DNA of 64,000 bases from Candidatus Latescibacterota bacterium (lineage in GTDB: Bacteria; Latescibacterota; UBA2968), in the NCBI GenBank assembly GCA_965116885.1, contig OZ220741.1, positions 2,720,001 to 2,784,000 on the forward strand, written 5' to 3'. Below, one piece after another: positions 3,590 to 10,621 of this stretch. A program made the position numbers and the translations under genes. The notes under the pieces are model-generated. The model saw only the letters and a list, made by a program, of their open reading frames with translations, ran no database searches and was not told the origin of the DNA. The first letter of the stretch is position 1, and every line of letters starts with the position of its first letter.

Positions 3590-5509
3590 ATGCTTTCGCA
3601 AAAGTATTCGGAAGACGTGTTAAAAGATATTTTGATTTCGCGGGATGATTGGCGGCCTTTTCCCACGGCGCTGATGCGCTATGCGTGGGATGCGTTGCCA
3701 GACGCGGTGCGGCAGGCGCAAATTGCGCGGGGGGAAGAACGCTTGAATTTTGAATGGCCCGGTGTGCCTGCGGTGCGGTTTTTGGATTATGCGCGCAATG
3801 GGAATCGCTCGCGGTACGAGAGCTTGAGTTTTGGGCGGCGCACGGCGCTGTCCAATCTGGTTCTGGCAGAGTGCGTGGAGGGTAAAGGCCGATTTTTGGA
3901 TGATATTACCAATGGTATCTGGTGTATTTGCGAGGAGTCTTTTTGGGGCGTGCCCGCGCATATTGGCGTGCAAAAGGCGGGTAGTGGGCTGCCGGATACG
4001 GCTGAGCCGATTGTCGATTTGTTTGCCGCAGAGACGTCGGAATTGCTGGCGTGGACGGTGTATTTGCTGGGCGCGCAACTCGACGCGGTTTCGCCTTTGA
4101 TTGTGCCGCGCATTGCGCGTGAGATGCAATATCGGATTTTGACGCCTTTGTTGGAGCGCGAAGATTTTGGGTGGATGGGGTATTCGGGTGCGCGCGTGAA
4201 CAATTGGAATCCGTGGATTGTGTCGAATTGGTTGACTTCTACTTTGTTGATGGAGACCGATGACGCGCGGCGGGTTGCGTCGGTGTTTAAGGCGATGCAG
4301 ACGGTGGATCATTTTATCGATCCGTATCCAGAGGATGGAGGATGTGACGAGGGGCCGGGCTATTGGGGGCGTGCGGGGGCATCGCTTTACGATTGTTTGG
4401 AGTGGCTTTACAGTGCAACGGGTGGGGCGATTGATGTGTACGATGAGCCGCTCGTTCAGAATATTGGCAAGTTTATCTATCGGGTACAAATTGCGGATCG
4501 ATATTTTATCAATTTTGCCGATGCGTCGCCTGTGGTGATGCCGGCTTTTGCGGTTGTTTATGGCTATGGCAAGCGCATTGGGGATGACGCGATGGTGGCT
4601 CTCGGCGCGTGGTCTGCAAGACAACAGGGCGTTGCCGAGAAGGGTATTTCGGAGTCTTTTGGGAGCATGGGTCGGGCTTTGCCCGCGCTGTTTTCACTGA
4701 ATGAGATTCTCGATGCAGATGCTGCGCCGCCGTTGCCGCGCGATGTATTTTTGGATGAGATTGAGGTGTTTGTCGCACGCGATCAAGGGGGATCGACAGA
4801 TGGATTTTTTGTGGGGGCAAAGGGCGGGCACAATGCCGAGAGTCACAATCACAATGATATCGGGCATGTGGTGGTCTATTTGGATGGCAAACCCGTGCTC
4901 GTGGATGCGGGGGTCGAGACTTATACGGCTAAGACATTTAGCAGTACGCGGTATGATATTTGGACGATGCAATCCCAATATCACACGTTGCCGACGGTGA
5001 ACGGACAGATGCAGATTCCCGGGCGGGTTTATTCCGAGGCGGGGATTGATTATCACTACGATATTGCGGCTCGGGATGTGTCGTATGTGGCGAGTGAGGC
5101 AGATGCGACGTTTACTCTGGATCTGGCGCAGGCCTATCCGCCAGAGGCTCAGATTGATTCCTGGATGAGGACGGTTGTTTTGCGTCGCGGCGAGGGTGTG
5201 ACGATTGCAGATCGATATGCGTTGAAAGCCGTGACGGGTGATGTTGTGATGAATGTGTTGACGGCGTGTGGCGTTGAGGATTGTGGCGATGGCACAATCG
5301 CATTGAACGAGGCAGAGTTGGCGGATGGTCGCGTGTCTGGCGCGGCGCATTTGCACTACGAGGCGGATGTGTTTGACGTGGCGATTGAGGATATTGCGAT
5401 TGAAGACGCGCGATTGAAGACTGTTTGGGGCGATTTGTTGCGAAGAATCACGCTGACGGTTAAGGATCCCGAGCCACAGGGCGGGTGGACGATTCGGGTG
5501 ACGCGGTAG
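3590..5509 (+). CDS. Heparinase II/III-like polysaccharide lyase (no signal peptide seen)
   Basis: NNWNPWI, DGGCDEGPGYW, KGGHNAESHNHNDIG, LVDAG..YT, SQYH motifs; GAGG RBS. Confidence 0.85.
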   Translation: MLSQKYSEDVLKDILISRDDWRPFPTALMRYAWDALPDAVRQAQIARGEERLNFEWPGVPAVRFLDYARNGNRSRYESLSFGRRTALSNLVLAECVEGKGRFLDDITNGIWCICEESFWGVPAHIGVQKAGSGLPDTAEPIVDLFAAETSELLAWTVYLLGAQLDAVSPLIVPRIAREMQYRILTPLLEREDFGWMGYSGARVNNWNPWIVSNWLTSTLLMETDDARRVASVFKAMQTVDHFIDPYPEDGGCDEGPGYWGRAGASLYDCLEWLYSATGGAIDVYDEPLVQNIGKFIYRVQIADRYFINFADASPVVMPAFAVVYGYGKRIGDDAMVALGAWSARQQGVAEKGISESFGSMGRALPALFSLNEILDADAAPPLPRDVFLDEIEVFVARDQGGSTDGFFVGAKGGHNAESHNHNDIGHVVVYLDGKPVLVDAGVETYTAKTFSSTRYDIWTMQSQYHTLPTVNGQMQIPGRVYSEAGIDYHYDIAARDVSYVASEADATFTLDLAQAYPPEAQIDSWMRTVVLRRGEGVTIADRYALKAVTGDVVMNVLTACGVEDCGDGTIALNEAELADGRVSGAAHLHYEADVFDVAIEDIAIEDARLKTVWGDLLRRITLTVKDPEPQGGWTIRVTR

Positions 5510-5554: not shown

Positions 5555-5599
5555 AATAAAAAAGGAGCAATGTCATAGGGGCTTGCTCCTTTTTTTATT
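5555..5599. terminator. Bidirectional intrinsic terminator
   Basis: aataaaaaaggagcaa-loop-ttgctcctttttttatt between convergent genes. Confidence 0.85.
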
Positions 5600-6683
5600 C
5601 GATTAAGGCTTCGGAGATGGCGTCGTGAAATTCGGGGCGGAGATGGGCAATTTGGTTGTTCTCGCGGGTGGGGTGTACACGGTTGGTGAGGAGGATGACG
5701 CCGAGGTCTCGTATGGGGTCTCCCCATACGGATGTGCCGGTGAATCCGAGGATGCCGAAGGCTTGTTCGCTAAAGTAACGGCCGCTCGAACTTGCGCCGG
5801 GAGAGACGGTGTCCCAGCCGAGTGCCCAGGTGCTGTTGGGCGCGAGGTTGGCGCGTGTGGTGAATTGTGGAATGCTCCGTTTTGGAAAGATGCCTGTGCC
5901 GAGCCATGCGAGCAGGCATTTCGACAGGTCAGATGCTGTGGAAAACAGGCCAGCGTGGGAGGCGATACCACCCATTGCGGCGGTGTTTTCATCGTGGACT
6001 TCACCGTGTACGAGGTGATCGCGCAAGTCGGAGCCATCTTCCGTGGGCGCAATGCGGTGTTTGAGATGGGGCGGTGGACAGTACAATGTGTCGTTCATTT
6101 TGAGCGGTTCGAATATGTGCTGTTTGGCGAGGTGATCCAGACGATGACCGCCGATGGTTTCGAGGATTTTACCCAGGGTGAGAAAGCCCAGGTCGCTGTA
6201 CACGGTGTCTGTGCCGGGTTCATAAGTTAAGGGGTGTTGGCAGGCTGCGTTGAGCATGGTCTCGCGGGGATCAATCATATTGCGTTGGTTTTCGTACAGG
6301 TGAACATGTGCGGGCAGGCCGCTGCAATGGGCGAGCAGATGCCGAACGGTGACGCGGTCTTTGTTTTTTCCGGTGAATGCGGGGACATAAAATTGCACGG
6401 GTGCGTCGAGGTTGAGGCGATCTTTATCGGTAAATAACATGCAGAGTGTTGTGGTGGCGATGACTTTGGTGACGGAAGCGAGGTCGTAGATGGTATTGAT
6501 TTGTACGGGTGTCGCGTTGGGTTGATAGGTGTGGTGGCCCACAGCCCAGGAGGTGACGATGCCCGTGCGGCGCAGGACGAGGCCGACAGCACCGGGGGTG
6601 GTGCGGGTATGCACATGGCGTTGTAATACTTGACGGGCGCGATCGAGTTTTTGCGAATTAAAACCGATTTGTTCGGGTGTCAT
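5595..6683 (-). CDS. Serine hydrolase, beta-lactamase-related (class C / AmiE-like)
   Basis: YDLASVTK (SxxK), YSDLGF, HGEVHDEN, HAGLFST, LLTNRVHP. Confidence 0.88.
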   Translation of the reverse strand: MTPEQIGFNSQKLDRARQVLQRHVHTRTTPGAVGLVLRRTGIVTSWAVGHHTYQPNATPVQINTIYDLASVTKVIATTTLCMLFTDKDRLNLDAPVQFYVPAFTGKNKDRVTVRHLLAHCSGLPAHVHLYENQRNMIDPRETMLNAACQHPLTYEPGTDTVYSDLGFLTLGKILETIGGHRLDHLAKQHIFEPLKMNDTLYCPPPHLKHRIAPTEDGSDLRDHLVHGEVHDENTAAMGGIASHAGLFSTASDLSKCLLAWLGTGIFPKRSIPQFTTRANLAPNSTWALGWDTVSPGASSSGRYFSEQAFGILGFTGTSVWGDPIRDLGVILLTNRVHPTRENNQIAHLRPEFHDAISEALIE

Positions 6684-6788: not shown

Positions 6789-7436
6789 ATGAGATATCGA
6801 CATATCTTTGGAGTAGGCGCATTTATCGCTCTGTTTTTTGCGATGTGTATGCCCGCTGAGGGACAGGTGAATGTGGAACGGCTCGAGAGCATTGCGCGAC
6901 ATGTGGCTCGGGCGGTTTTAGCTGAGGGGGATTCTCTAACGGCAGAGCAGGTTGTATGGGTCGAGCGCATGACCGCGCAATTGGCAGAGGATGCGGTGTT
7001 TCTCGACGAGCAAAAACAGCGGTTGGAAGAGGTGCGTCGCGAAAGAGATGCGTCGATTCGGAATATCGCGAGTCAGGTTGCCAAGGGGATTGCTGTTCTG
7101 ATTGCGCTGCTGGTTTTGTGGGGGATTTTCCGTGTTATTAGAAGAGGTGTGAGTGCTGAGTCGGGAAATGATCCTCTGGGGGTGTTGATTGCGATGCGCA
7201 CAGAAGCGCGGGCGCAGAAACTCGGGGAGGCGCTTGTTGAAGAAAATTTGGCGTCGGGCGGAACTGTTGCACCGAGTATCCGTTCAATCTATCGCAGGGA
7301 GGATGGGGTGCGAGAAGCTGCGGAGGCGATGGTTTTTTTGAAGACGACGCGGGCACAATTAAGCGATTTGATTGGTCGCGCAGAGGAATTGGGCGAGGGC
7401 AAGACGCCAGAACTCGTTGTGATACGCGAGGGGTGA
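6789..7436 (+). CDS. Signal peptide + helical region + TM helix + C-terminal CutA-like domain
   Basis: Start reassigned to ATG 6789 (MRYRHIF). C-terminus AQKLGEALVEENLASG..IRSIYRREDGVREAAEAMVFLKTT..TPELVVI matches the CutA pattern. Confidence 0.72.
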   Translation: MRYRHIFGVGAFIALFFAMCMPAEGQVNVERLESIARHVARAVLAEGDSLTAEQVVWVERMTAQLAEDAVFLDEQKQRLEEVRRERDASIRNIASQVAKGIAVLIALLVLWGIFRVIRRGVSAESGNDPLGVLIAMRTEARAQKLGEALVEENLASGGTVAPSIRSIYRREDGVREAAEAMVFLKTTRAQLSDLIGRAEELGEGKTPELVVIREG

Positions 7437-7444
7437 GAGGGTTT

Positions 7445-7548
7445 CACACGAAGACACGAAGACACAAAGATACAAGATGTGAGACGAAAGAGTGTAGGGG
7501 CGGTGTCCCCGTATAAAAGCACTACGGGGCAGGCTCCTGTGCCCACCG
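7445..7548 (+). repeat. Short tandem repeats (cacgaaga-like) followed by a GTAG REP-like element with an internal hairpin
   Basis: cacacgaagacacgaagacacaaagatacaag; gtaggggcggtgtccccgta..tacggggcaggctcctgtgccc. Confidence 0.6.
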
Positions 7549-7567
7549 GTGAGAGGATACTGATAGT

Positions 7568-8236
7568 ATGTTAAGAGTCTGGATCGTTATTCTGTTGGGG
7601 TTTGTTGCGTCCGCAGCGGCAGAGGAAGATAATGCTTCGCGTATTGCGCGCGAGATGGTTCGCTCGCTGTATGGCTCTGAGCGCGTGAAGCCGTTGCCAC
7701 CTGTGGCGAATGCACAGGTGCGCGCTATTGCGAGAAGGTTGGCTGTGGAGTCGGATGGGCGTTTTCAGCACGCGTTTTTTCAGGAGGATCGCGAGCAGGG
7801 CGCGTTTTTCAGCGGGCTGATGAAGCATGTTATTATCGGGGTGATGATTTGTCTGGTGTTTTTTGTGGTGCATACGGTTGTGCGAAAACTCGATGCGGCG
7901 CGGCGTCTGGGGAAAACGGATCGCGATGTCGCAGTTCAAGGTGGGGTGCGAACTGCGCCTTGTATTCTGGCTCTTCCCATGCCATCTGAAGCGGAGGCAA
8001 GTCGCGTTGGGCACGCGCTTGTTGCCGAGCGGTTGGCTGCGCGGGCAGATGTTTTTTCGCAGTATTTTTTATCGCCGGATCGGGATGAAGGTACTGTGCT
8101 GTTTGTGGTGACTGTAAAAGGCCGCTTGAGGTCACTGAAAAAACGGTTGGGAGATTTGTCTATTTCATTTTCCGTGTCGCATGGACACAGATCTTATTTG
8201 ACGTGGATTGCCGATGCGGCTGATGGGAGAGGGTGA
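7568..8236 (+). CDS. Signal peptide + helical region + TM helix + degenerate CutA-like domain
   Basis: PSEAEASRVGHALVAERLAA and C-terminal GHRSYLTWI resemble CutA helix 1 and the terminal YLxW helix. Confidence 0.62.
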   Translation: MLRVWIVILLGFVASAAAEEDNASRIAREMVRSLYGSERVKPLPPVANAQVRAIARRLAVESDGRFQHAFFQEDREQGAFFSGLMKHVIIGVMICLVFFVVHTVVRKLDAARRLGKTDRDVAVQGGVRTAPCILALPMPSEAEASRVGHALVAERLAARADVFSQYFLSPDRDEGTVLFVVTVKGRLRSLKKRLGDLSISFSVSHGHRSYLTWIADAADGRG

Positions 8237-8280
8237 AAGGCGAAAGGTATCCGCAGATGGACGCAGATGGACACAGATGA
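8236..8280 (+). repeat. Decamer tandem repeat element (acgcagatgN)n; inverted copy at 25243-25295
   Basis: aaaggcgaaaggtatccgcagatggacgcagatggacacagatga. Confidence 0.75.
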
Positions 8281-8325
8281 GAGGATGAAGGGCGGGAGGT
8301 ATTCAGGACATTTTGGGGGTTGATC

Positions 8326-9054
8326 ATGCGTGTATTCAGATATGTTCTCTTATTTTTTTTGGCAATAGTTATAATTATTCAATTTGAAACCTGGTTAGAT
8401 ACTTTTTTGCCGGCCGAAATTAGCGACCTGTTCTCAATATTTCTTATGGTTGCTGCTATTTCTATTTTTTGGGGTCGAAAAAATAAATTTCAACGTTGGT
8501 TTGACGACCTGTCGCATCGCATCAATAAAACGTGCGGTCCCCTTTTCCGAAAATTGCGGGTTGCGACCACTGTCATAGGACATATTGTTATTCTGGGATA
8601 TTTGGCTCCCTGGTATTTGCCAGTCTTATTTGGAAGTACGACACCGGGAAATTATATGGGTAAGGCGCGGATCGGACAAGGGGAGGATGAAAAAAGATGG
8701 ACGTGTGTTTATGAATACAAAACACCAAAAGGCGTTTTTGAAGGTCATATTGCCTGGAGCCCACCAGATCCTCCAGAAGATTTAGAGGCTTATTGCAGCA
8801 AACAAATACCCGAATCCATTATCTATTTTCCGCCCAATCCCCAATATCACTATCCCAAGAACAGAAGTCAGCCCATTATGTATAATTATCCAGTAACCCT
8901 GTTCTCTGTTGCGATGCTCGGGGTGAATATCTTTTGGGTTTTTATTCCGCTGTTCAAACAAGGTGCGATTTCAAATGGTGAAGATGTGCGCGAGACGTTT
9001 TGGTGGGCAGTTATCAGTTTAGGATATGTAGGGCTTTATGGCTGGGGTTTCTGA
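8326..9054 (+). CDS. Hypothetical multi-pass membrane protein, AT-richer than its neighbours
   Basis: About five hydrophobic segments around a soluble loop with two Cys; no family recognised. Confidence 0.6.
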   Translation: MRVFRYVLLFFLAIVIIIQFETWLDTFLPAEISDLFSIFLMVAAISIFWGRKNKFQRWFDDLSHRINKTCGPLFRKLRVATTVIGHIVILGYLAPWYLPVLFGSTTPGNYMGKARIGQGEDEKRWTCVYEYKTPKGVFEGHIAWSPPDPPEDLEAYCSKQIPESIIYFPPNPQYHYPKNRSQPIMYNYPVTLFSVAMLGVNIFWVFIPLFKQGAISNGEDVRETFWWAVISLGYVGLYGWGF

Positions 9055-9241: not shown

Positions 9242-9478
9242 ATGGGTGCGTTCACTATTCACTTGCCAAATTCACTGCATGACAAAATCGAAGAACTGGC
9301 TAAAGCAGAAGGTTTATCATTTAATCAGTTTATGGTGACTGCTGCTGCTGAAAAAATAGCTGCATTACTTCCAGAGGACTATCTGACTCAAGAGGCGAAA
9401 CAAGGTAAACGGGCGGATTTTGAAAAAGTCTTAAAGGCCGTTCCCCACATTGAACCAGAAGAACAGGACCGGCTCTGA
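9242..9478 (+). CDS. Ribbon-helix-helix (HicB/CopG-like) antitoxin
   Basis: FTIHLPNSLHDKIEELAKAEGLSFNQFMVTAAAEK...VPHIEPEEQDRL. Confidence 0.8.
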   Translation: MGAFTIHLPNSLHDKIEELAKAEGLSFNQFMVTAAAEKIAALLPEDYLTQEAKQGKRADFEKVLKAVPHIEPEEQDRL

Positions 9479-9670: not shown

Positions 9671-10621
9671 ATGTACATTCCAGAAACTCTATCATCCAAT
9701 CCAAAATGGGCTGAATGGATCGAACGGTTGCCAGATATCGTCGCTGCGTGTGCAAAGCGGTGGAATCTTCGCATTGAAGATCCCATGACAGAAGAGTATG
9801 CCGAGATGTCCTATAGTTATATTGCACCAGCGACGGATGCGAAGGGCACAGAGGTTATTTTGAAAATTGGCTCGCCTGTGCAACTGGCGGAAAACTCGCA
9901 GCAAGAGTGCCACGCGCTACAACTTTGCAATGGTAATGGTACGGTCAAGTTGCTCGATTTTGACGAGGCGTTGGGCGTGCTGATGCTCGAGCGCATCCGT
10001 CCAGGTGTGCCTCTGGGTGTTTGTCCGGATGACGAGGAGAATACGCGCATTGCCGCTCGGCTGATGAAAAAGTTCTGGCAACCCGTTCCGAAAGTTCACA
10101 GTTTTCGACCGACGGCGTATGAGATAGATGGTTTTGACAAGTTGCGCAAAAAATACAATGGCGGCACCGGACCGCTGCCCGAAAAATGGGTTGTGCGCGC
10201 CGAAACGCTTTACGATGAGTTGATGAATACGAGTACAGAAACGGTTGTTCTGCACGGGGATTTGCACCACTGGAATATTTTGAGTGCTGAGCGCGAACCC
10301 TATCTCGTCATTGATCCCAAAGGTTATTTTGGCGATCCGGGTTACGAGGTCGGTGCTTTTTTGGCGAATTATCCCGACGCATCCTGTGATGGATGTGACC
10401 GGGGCGAAATCGATGTTCGCCGCGTGGAGATTATGGCCGAAGAATTGGATATTCCGCACGAGCGTATTATCAAATGGGGTTTGGTTCTGGCTTTAATCTG
10501 GGCGAGATGGAGTGCGGATACGCCCGAGGAGTTCTGGCGTACAAGTATTAATCGCCCAGGCGTTGGATCAGTTGCTTTAGATGATGTGTCATTCCTAACC
10601 ACAAGGAGATTTTATGTCTAA
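9671..10621 (+). CDS. Aminoglycoside/hydroxyurea kinase family (APH(6)-like phosphotransferase)
   Basis: VILKI, LMLERI, LHGDLHHWNIL, VIDPKG..GDPGYE; the C-terminus may be frameshifted. Confidence 0.85.
   Translation: MYIPETLSSNPKWAEWIERLPDIVAACAKRWNLRIEDPMTEEYAEMSYSYIAPATDAKGTEVILKIGSPVQLAENSQQECHALQLCNGNGTVKLLDFDEALGVLMLERIRPGVPLGVCPDDEENTRIAARLMKKFWQPVPKVHSFRPTAYEIDGFDKLRKKYNGGTGPLPEKWVVRAETLYDELMNTSTETVVLHGDLHHWNILSAEREPYLVIDPKGYFGDPGYEVGAFLANYPDASCDGCDRGEIDVRRVEIMAEELDIPHERIIKWGLVLALIWARWSADTPEEFWRTSINRPGVGSVALDDVSFLTTRRFYV

Follow-up and report, generated by a model that had tools for sequence, protein, structure and literature searches.

A tandem pair of predicted membrane-anchored CutA paralogues with reciprocal motif losses replaces soluble CutA in a Latescibacterota lineage

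A pair of adjacent genes, here termed gene 1 (encoding P1) and gene 2 (encoding P2), occupies the cutA locus and replaces soluble CutA in a lineage of the Latescibacterota. The pair was analysed in a 64,000-nucleotide stretch of DNA (hereafter the window, to which the feature coordinates refer) from the genome of a Candidatus Latescibacterota bacterium (contig OZ220741.1, positions 2,720,001 to 2,784,000 of the forward strand). Both proteins carry CutA domains that would be tethered to the inner membrane, and each of these domains has lost a different part of the conserved CutA residues; this motif loss is reciprocal and has the same direction in all three families in which the pair was compared. 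The two genes are best explained as an operon of ancient paralogues, and a probability of about 0.5 is assigned to the reading that a mixed, membrane-tethered CutA oligomer is the functional unit, in which the association of the two proteins and the attribution of one cleft wall to each are proposed from their sequences.

Clear relationships emerge between both C-termini and the CutA1 family (PF03091). The Pfam profile, which has a cut-off of 22.4 bits and 99 positions, matched P1 with 49.7 bits over positions 3-83 and P2 with 22.1 bits, marginally below the cut-off, over positions 3-98; about a third of the close relatives of P2 have a precomputed PF03091 match. Family profiles were aligned with the CutA1 structure 1nza at an E value of 1.6e-13 for P1 (query 134-215 on chain 5-86 of 103) and of 1e-5 for P2 (chain 4-100, with deletions of 6 and 7 residues). 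The AlphaFold2 (AF2) models had mean predicted local distance difference test (pLDDT) values of 68 for P1 and 65.5 for P2, with the best-predicted blocks of the CutA core at 84-93, and their secondary structure was b1-a1-b2-b3-a2-b4 for P1 and b1-a1, a short b2, a short b3, a2, b4 and a3 for P2. Among the listed top Foldseek matches, the P1 model superposed on CutA1 crystal structures with root mean square deviations of 1.2-2.5 Å over 87-94 columns and target TM scores (TMt) of 0.72-0.80; the TMt of the P2 model with CutA1 structures was 0.62-0.75, and the best matches in the PDB were, for both models, CutA1 structures and CutA-derived designs. A search of the ESM Atlas with P2 gave no usable match. 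Both proteins remained below the thresholds of the NCBIfam CutA equivalogs NF041095 and NF007930, as P1 scored 27.9 and 30 bits versus the 120 and 145 needed, and P2 scored 14.7. They also depart from the soluble single-domain CutA1 of ~100-115 amino acids in being 215 and 222 residues long and in possessing two hydrophobic segments each. In public annotation, P1 appears as CutA and P2 as a hypothetical protein.

Both proteins were aligned with E. coli CutA (sequence taken from NC_000913.3), whose residue numbering is used throughout. The complete conserved set (C39, S48, Y50, W52, E61, K67, H84, Y86, P89-E90, G99, Y103, L104, and W106) is present in neither protein, each of which has about half of it. 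P1 retains S48 and Y50 (within SIYR), E61, K67 and T68, and P89-E90; C39 is replaced by Gly, W52 by Arg, and H83-Y86 by GEGK, and the protein ends at about residue 98, so that G99, Y103, L104, and W106 are missing. P2 has a deletion of 5-6 residues in the beta2-beta3 hairpin, which removes S48-Y51, a 7-residue deletion of H83..E90, and Arg at position 39, whereas it retains G99, Y103, L104, and W106 (GHRSYLTWI) and ends in a conserved WIADAADGRG. The split was followed in 8 canonical CutAs, 13 gene-1-type domains, and 13 gene-2-type domains; in this order, the E. coli residue was counted 8/0/13 times for A38, 8/0/4 for C39, 8/13/3 for S48, 8/13/0 for Y50, 8/5/0 for W52, 8/13/4 for E61, 8/10/4 for K67, 8/1/13 for G99, 8/1/8 for Y103 (where the gene-2 type also has four His and one Phe), 8/1/10 for L104, and 8/3/10 for W106. 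The first-pass annotation, made from the sequence letters, had described both genes as encoding a signal peptide, an exported region, one transmembrane (TM) helix, and a CutA-like C-terminus; Pfam, the profiles, AF2/Foldseek, and hydropathy agree with this description. Its motif claims, namely, a first protein with the hairpin and the PE motif that lacks the cysteine, the HPY region, and the final helix, and a second protein with GHRSYLTWI in which the hairpin and HPYxxPE are deleted, hold in the alignment with E. coli CutA, and the complementarity of losses that it had noticed recurs in the 13 plus 13 domains of the three families.

A tree of 38 CutA domains groups all 13 gene-1-type domains in a single clade (support 96/91) and all 13 gene-2-type domains in a second (91/94), and does not settle how either type branches relative to canonical CutAs. 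The pair is read from this tree as the product of one old duplication. An approximately unbiased test did not reject a tree in which every anchored CutA domain falls into a single clade (p = 0.219), a result that does not establish a single origin of the anchor. P1 and P2 align with 22% identity (E = 0.002) over residues 25-201. Pairs at an early stage (genera g10, g11, and g5) have nearly whole domains and a C-terminal PWWKR tail, and degeneration is most advanced in the window's genus, g4, and g9. A C-terminal basic-aromatic tail of this kind (PWWKR) is seen in the less degenerate anchored CutAs P0149, P0153, P0167, P0144, L065, and L067 and has been lost from P1 and P2. In genome G077, a 331-amino-acid open reading frame (ORF) carries a gene-1-type CutA behind the anchor and, fused to it, a second CutA that is near-canonical (two CutA1 stretches, 177 bits in total); the ORF is followed by an anchored gene-2-type CutA (L068:3325-4985), so that three different CutA domains are encoded by two genes. 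This fused ORF was found again on other contigs, with 90% identity.

The pair is considered to stand in for cutA because it shares a neighbour with ordinary cutA loci. A beta-lactamase-family gene adjoins the pair in 13 of the 14 pair loci, and the same gene adjoins the canonical cutA, encoding 104-114 amino acids, of sister genera from the same and the next family (L023-L027). The genome that contains the window (one contig, 98% complete) has no CutA1 matches other than these two, and no additional canonical CutA was detected at E <= 1e-5 in the genomes with anchored copies. Across the phylum, 168 genomes were searched. Tandem anchored pairs were found in g1, g4, and g9, which belong to one family, and in two genera of a second family, g10 and g11; g5, of the same family as g1, has both genes on separate short contigs, g12, of a third family, has the fused form, and g13 has a single anchored copy. 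In the 13 Latescibacterota genomes from three families that were examined at the locus level, neither type occurs without the other. Of the 21 genomes of the window's genus, 20 have the two genes side by side in the same orientation.

Purifying selection acts on both genes. Nei-Gojobori ratios of nonsynonymous to synonymous substitution rates (dN/dS) across 16 genomes of the genus were 0.19 for P1 (periplasmic region 0.19, TM helix 0.15, CutA 0.17) and 0.245 for P2 (0.20, 0.28, and 0.21, respectively). The distances of gene 1 and gene 2 are correlated (r = 0.93), which reflects shared ancestry only and is no evidence of interaction. Synteny and purifying selection in related genomes, two of the checks that the first-pass annotation had named, both came out in favour of a maintained pair. 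That one or both genes are decaying duplicates, pseudogenes, or an annotation artefact is highly improbable: P2 falls just below the Pfam threshold and P1 is truncated relative to CutA, as such decay would have it, but the ORFs are intact and of constant length in every genome of the genus that was searched, the truncation and the deletions are common to several genera, the dN/dS values lie at 0.19-0.245, and both genes are represented among the contigs of four metatranscriptome libraries. These libraries (three sponge and one coral by label) contain contigs over both genes with 90-99% likeness, and the DNA data sets that hold the pair are mostly labelled as sponge metagenomes.

The premature end of P1 was also examined for a local cause. 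It had been suggested that P1 might be full length in relatives and truncated here by a repeat at about position 7445; this was rejected, since the stop is at the identical position in 15 of 15 same-genus loci, including the 4 in which the spacer between the genes measures 4 nucleotides (range, 4-174 nucleotides), and since the closest 22 relatives with full coverage are 215-219 amino acids long. The spacer as a whole has no second copy in the genome; its short palindrome TAGGGGCGGTGNCCCC alone is dispersed, with one copy in the spacer and 85 genome-wide (reversed control, 0). No promoter-like site was detected, and the spacer has no terminator-like site, the sole one being located within gene 2. 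The 4-nucleotide spacers in 4 of the 15 loci also speak for an operon. An 870-nucleotide RNA-library contig extends from the end of P1 through the entire P2; it is weak support for an operon because such contigs cannot prove a single transcript and carry-over of DNA is possible.

Several observations on the repeats of this region stand apart from the pair itself. The palindromic motif TAGGGGCGGTGCCCC(T/C) has 38 forward and 47 reverse copies in the genome, 85 in all; other sites in the window are at about 15573 (-), 26687 (+), and 35030 (+), its strand seems to switch along chromosome position, and a tandem array of 4 copies at 34-nucleotide spacing lies outside the window (G000:C1:2186104-2186221). 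Metatranscriptome contigs pile up on this palindrome. Tandem motifs of ~10 nucleotides (CACGAAGACA…, ATGGACGCAG…) flank both genes at 7445-7480 and 8242-8308, and similar short tandem motifs fill the variable spacer of relatives. The stretch 8242-8308 reached a summed depth of up to 2467 from many unrelated RNA-library contigs and is for this reason considered a dispersed repeat.

Hydropathy identified two hydrophobic segments in each protein, at residues 5-25 and 92-121 of P1 and at residues 1-19 and 78-111 of P2. The first is preceded by a short basic N-terminus and its end resembles a signal-peptidase site; in relatives, this segment ends in AQA, AWA, or ASA followed by Q or E. After the second come basic residues, in P1 as RVIRRG and in P2 as RKLDAARR. 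Given the signal-peptide-like N-terminus and a second hydrophobic stretch with basic residues behind it, the simplest topology would be that of type I single-pass proteins, in which ~70 residues are exported, one TM helix crosses the membrane, and the CutA domain is cytoplasmic.

In alignments, the TM anchor of P1 resembles the second TM segment (TM2) of the flagellar ring protein FliF. The FliF of genome G023 (512 amino acids, with PF01514 and PF08345) matched the P1 of the same genome with its residues 394-451 at 58-59% identity (E = 5.5e-11 genome-wide; 53 amino acids and E = 7e-15 in a pairwise comparison). The same FliF matched the anchor of the window's P1 at 50% identity (E = 1.2e-4 genome-wide), and BLASTP gave 45% over 69 amino acids at E = 1e-7. 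The likeness thus covers a juxtamembrane helix plus TM2 of ~55 amino acids with 45-59% identity and the same out-to-in orientation; FliF differs in having ring-building domains and a FliG-binding tail, which were not found in P1 and P2 by Pfam. When this FliF was used as query, the sister genera g2-g5 and one g7 genome yielded FliF, whereas P1 itself was the only match in the genus of the window (21 genomes; in 17 of them at E <= 0.001). The window's own genome has no match to PF01514 (FliF) or PF00771 (FlhA); their absence suggests that flagella were lost in the genus, in which a FliF-derived anchor would persist in P1.

The anchor is a portable module in this lineage, as the same anchor is found on CutA1 proteins, on FliF, and on proteins without a family. 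A profile of P1 N-terminal regions retrieved 42 representatives among 1.84 billion, of which 31 were scanned: 16 contained CutA1, 7 were FliF or FliF fragments, and 8 were without a family. In four of these 8, a signal peptide precedes a beta-rich exported part, and a short cytoplasmic coiled coil comes after the same anchor. Small proteins with this layout, including the FliF-like anchor, no CutA, and no Pfam family are L044:2651-3232 (-) of genome G021, which is near an integrase-like ORF, as well as P0156, P0157, P0160, and P0164. In the genome of the window, no paralogues of the N-terminal modules were found at E <= 1 beyond chance-level matches. Two candidate relatives of P1, L062 and L063, came up in the Acidobacteriota, of which L062 was discarded as a pattern artefact within a 644-amino-acid ORF that resembles, by eye, a peptidase with a PDZ domain.

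How the two proteins may work together can be proposed from the location of the lost residues. Canonical CutA is described as a homotrimer (PMC4620440, PMC12685090) held together by intertwined edge strands (PMC4620440), and its conserved residues are stated in PMC12685090 to line the intersubunit clefts, where E59, E61, and E90 matter and mutation weakens function. A mixed oligomer is proposed because the conserved residues line these clefts. Each gene would encode an inner-membrane protein in which a signal peptide, a periplasmic helix-loop-helix of ~70 amino acids, and a TM helix precede a CutA1 domain in the cytoplasm. The sequence of the TM helix would have been captured from TM2 of FliF, and on the cytoplasmic side of the membrane the CutA domains would come together as a mixed oligomer. 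The gene-1 type, which lost A38/C39 and the C-terminal helix, would supply the cleft wall formed by the hairpin (S48, Y50, E61, and K67) and the P89-E90 loop; the gene-2 type, from which the H..Y..PE loop and the hairpin motif are gone, would supply the wall formed by A38 and the C-terminal helix (G99, Y103, L104, and W106). Only the interface between the two types would then have both cleft walls, so that neither protein would be expected to work alone, and the two sorted sets of conserved residues are never lost together in one genome. The likely task of this assembly would be the poorly defined small-molecule binding of CutA in a membrane-tethered form; for the CutA of E. coli and Synechococcus, the ligands reported are pteridines and Cu(II) (PMC12685090).

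Several points weigh against a mixed oligomer of this kind. C39, H84, and Y86 are absent from P1 and P2 alike, and W52 of P1 is Arg. Because C39 and H84/Y86 have been lost from both, there would be no canonical cleft even at the hetero-interface, and the reported His2Cys ligands of Cu(II) are missing; the ligand may differ, or binding may have been lost. The idea of the first-pass annotation that the two proteins rebuild a ligand pocket is consequently retained in part: the losses are complementary, but a full rebuilding is impossible in this genus. The assignment of the two residue sets to opposite walls rests on the published cleft statement and on the general architecture of PII proteins, and a trimer cannot hold two proteins in a 1:1 ratio. 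Convergent degeneration could inflate the clade support of both types, and the exported regions of both proteins were modelled at low AF2 confidence (pLDDT 36-74). Finally, G010, a genome of the same genus, carries both genes intact at a distance of ~3.4 Mb, from which it follows that co-transcription is not obligatory.

The intact but unlinked genes of G010 would also fit two independent membrane-tethered homo-oligomers, in which the reciprocal loss would stem from functional divergence, for example in ligands or partners, and not from interdependence. The homotrimeric state described for canonical CutA (PMC4620440, PMC12685090) and the strong divergence of the exported regions, with 22% identity between the proteins overall, point in the same direction. 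This alternative is nevertheless doubtful, as the two types always occurred together in the 13 genomes whose loci were examined, the direction of loss is identical in three families, and an ORF with two fused CutA domains exists in G077. In addition, P1 lacks the C-terminal helix and P2 the hairpin tip, and since the intertwined edge strands hold CutA trimers together (PMC4620440), homotrimers of either protein may be impaired. The mixed oligomer is thus the preferred reading.

A different question is whether the exported regions sense a signal. According to this alternative, which takes up the coupling across the membrane inferred in the first-pass annotation, a signal perceived by the periplasmic helix-loop-helix would reach the CutA cleft in the cytoplasm via the helix and the TM segment, or would travel the other way. 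Constraint is as strong in the periplasmic regions (dN/dS of 0.19-0.20) as in the CutA domains, AF2 modelled one continuous helix that starts in the periplasm, crosses the membrane, and ends within ~8 residues of beta1 (residues 52-121 of P1, preceded by a helix at 29-45, and residues 75-116 of P2), and PII-like proteins are described as signal transducers (PMC12685090). Judged from the constrained exported regions and the continuous modelled helices, signalling across the membrane is possible; a sensor of this kind is, all the same, considered unlikely. The Pfam scan of the P1 and P2 exported regions, modelled for P1 with a pLDDT of about 50-74, gave no family and no recognisable sensor domain. 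A kinship of the P1 region with the LTxxQ proteins CpxP and ZraP was considered and rejected, with hhalign probabilities of 0.3% for E. coli CpxP and 1.4% for ZraP; none of 10 P1 N-terminal regions matched PF13801 or PF07813 at E <= 5, and a distant relative, P0141, has a sub-threshold PF13801 match (19.5 bits versus a cut-off of 29.2). The surroundings of the pair gave no conserved output partner, such as a kinase, a transporter, or a transcription factor, and only the beta-lactamase-family gene is conserved there; unrelated small proteins use the same anchor as a plain tether.

When the mixed oligomer is combined with such signalling, an obligate heteromeric, membrane-spanning PII-like receptor can be envisaged, with a composite cleft, continuous helices, a FliF-derived TM segment, and a periplasmic helix-loop-helix. 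This is a tentative proposal with the odds against it; if true, the receptor would be a one-component device that links a cytoplasmic small molecule (pteridine or metal) to the periplasm, and a natural case in which a homomer became an obligate heteromer via reciprocal loss of half-sites. The features of the locus are compiled in Table 1.

Table 1. Position of the pair, its protein segments, and the adjoining features in the window
Feature	Coordinates	Strand	Description
Beta-lactamase-family serine hydrolase	5595..6683	-	Divergent neighbour of P1; PF00144, 198.5 bits
Gene 1 (P1, 215 aa)	6789..7436	+	Predicted signal peptide, periplasmic helical region, TM helix, C-terminally truncated cytoplasmic CutA1
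P1 residues 1-24	6789..6860	+	Hydrophobic N-terminus, likely cleavable signal peptide (…MPAEG followed by Q); from hydropathy, cleavage predicted
P1 residues 25-97	6861..7079	+	Predicted exported helical region: helix, DSLTAEQ loop, long helix
P1 residues 73-126	7005..7166	+	Juxtamembrane helix and TM helix; homologous to second TM segment of FliF
P1 residues 129-213	7173..7427	+	CutA1 domain b1-a1-b2-b3-a2-b4, without C-terminal helix; from Pfam, AF2, Foldseek, and alignment
Variable spacer	7437..7567	.	Short tandem motifs at about 7445-7480; dispersed palindrome resembling repetitive extragenic palindromic (REP) sequences at 7495-7510
Gene 2 (P2, 222 aa)	7568..8236	+	Predicted signal peptide, periplasmic region, TM helix, cytoplasmic CutA1 (short hairpin, intact C-terminal helix)
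P2 residues 1-18	7568..7621	+	Likely signal peptide (…ASAAA followed by EE); cleavage predicted
P2 residues 19-84	7622..7819	+	Predicted exported region; strongly conserved in genus (LYG.E.V.PLPP..NAQVR…FQHAFF), invariant alignment columns
P2 residues 85-106	7820..7885	+	TM helix, then cytoplasmic RK..RR
P2 residues 131-219	7958..8224	+	CutA1 domain b1-a1, short b2/b3, a2, b4, a3

Other genes lie in the surroundings. Directly after gene 2, an ORF for a multi-hydrophobic protein of 244 amino acids without a Pfam family (8320-9054, +) adjoins the pair in one close relative only (L029) among the loci compared. It is followed by a 78-amino-acid ORF with HicB and ribbon-helix-helix matches, a possible antitoxin (9242-9478, +), and by an APH(6)/hydroxyurea-kinase-like phosphotransferase (9671-10621, +; PF04655, 124 bits). 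Upstream, a 639-amino-acid protein (3590-5509, +) has a heparinase II/III match at its C-terminus.

The pair shares with CutA1/CutA (PF03091; E. coli 1NAQ, Thermus thermophilus 1NZA, and Synechococcus 6GDU-6GDX) the ferredoxin-like fold of the PII type and sequence homology, and its locus is that of the soluble cutA of sister genera. It differs from CutA1 in the ~125 additional N-terminal residues of its members (signal peptide, exported helices, and TM helix), in the presence of two paralogues instead of one, each with half of the conserved residues, and in the lack of helix a3 in P1 and of the hairpin tip and the H..PE loop in P2. The PII regulators GlnK and SbtB are homotrimers that are soluble and bind a transporter reversibly (GlnK-AmtB and SbtB-SbtA). 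A PII-like trimeric sensor of small molecules at the cytoplasmic face of the membrane would be common to them and the pair, whereas the domains of the pair are covalently tethered, paralogous, and half-degenerate, and a transporter partner is not evident at the loci compared. Public CutA1 fusions identified by precomputed Pfam matches (P0178, P0179, P0181, and P0182) comprise COX15/CtaA plus CutA1, hexapeptide-repeat plus CutA1, and CutA1 plus NUDIX. In the COX15/CtaA-CutA fusions (P0179 and P0181), CutA is also joined to a membrane protein, but this is a polytopic heme A synthase, and there is no pair of paralogues and no reciprocal loss. Mammalian CUTA is routed through the secretory pathway (PMC12685090); its targeting is eukaryotic, and it has neither a paralogue pair nor reciprocal loss. 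Literature searches, some queries of which were poorly specific, gave no description of membrane-anchored bacterial CutA pairs, in line with the first-pass annotation, which knew of no described system with such an architecture.

Although CutA is conserved in every domain of life, there is still debate about what it does; binding of pteridine and copper has been on record only since 2025 (PMC12685090). The pair belongs to the known CutA family and has an architecture that is new as far as these searches in print go, which makes it a useful handle on the function of CutA. A tethered pair in place of soluble CutA would locate the action of CutA in this lineage at the inner membrane, and the reciprocal loss divides the conserved residues into two separable units and would predict how these residues are shared out between the walls of the functional cleft. 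The reuse of FliF TM2 as a portable anchor would be an unusual case of module capture, which persists in a genus where FliF and FlhA were not found. If the mixed oligomer is true, the pair would be a clean case of the transition from a homo-oligomer to an obligate hetero-oligomer, with intermediates in sister genera and a fused form elsewhere.

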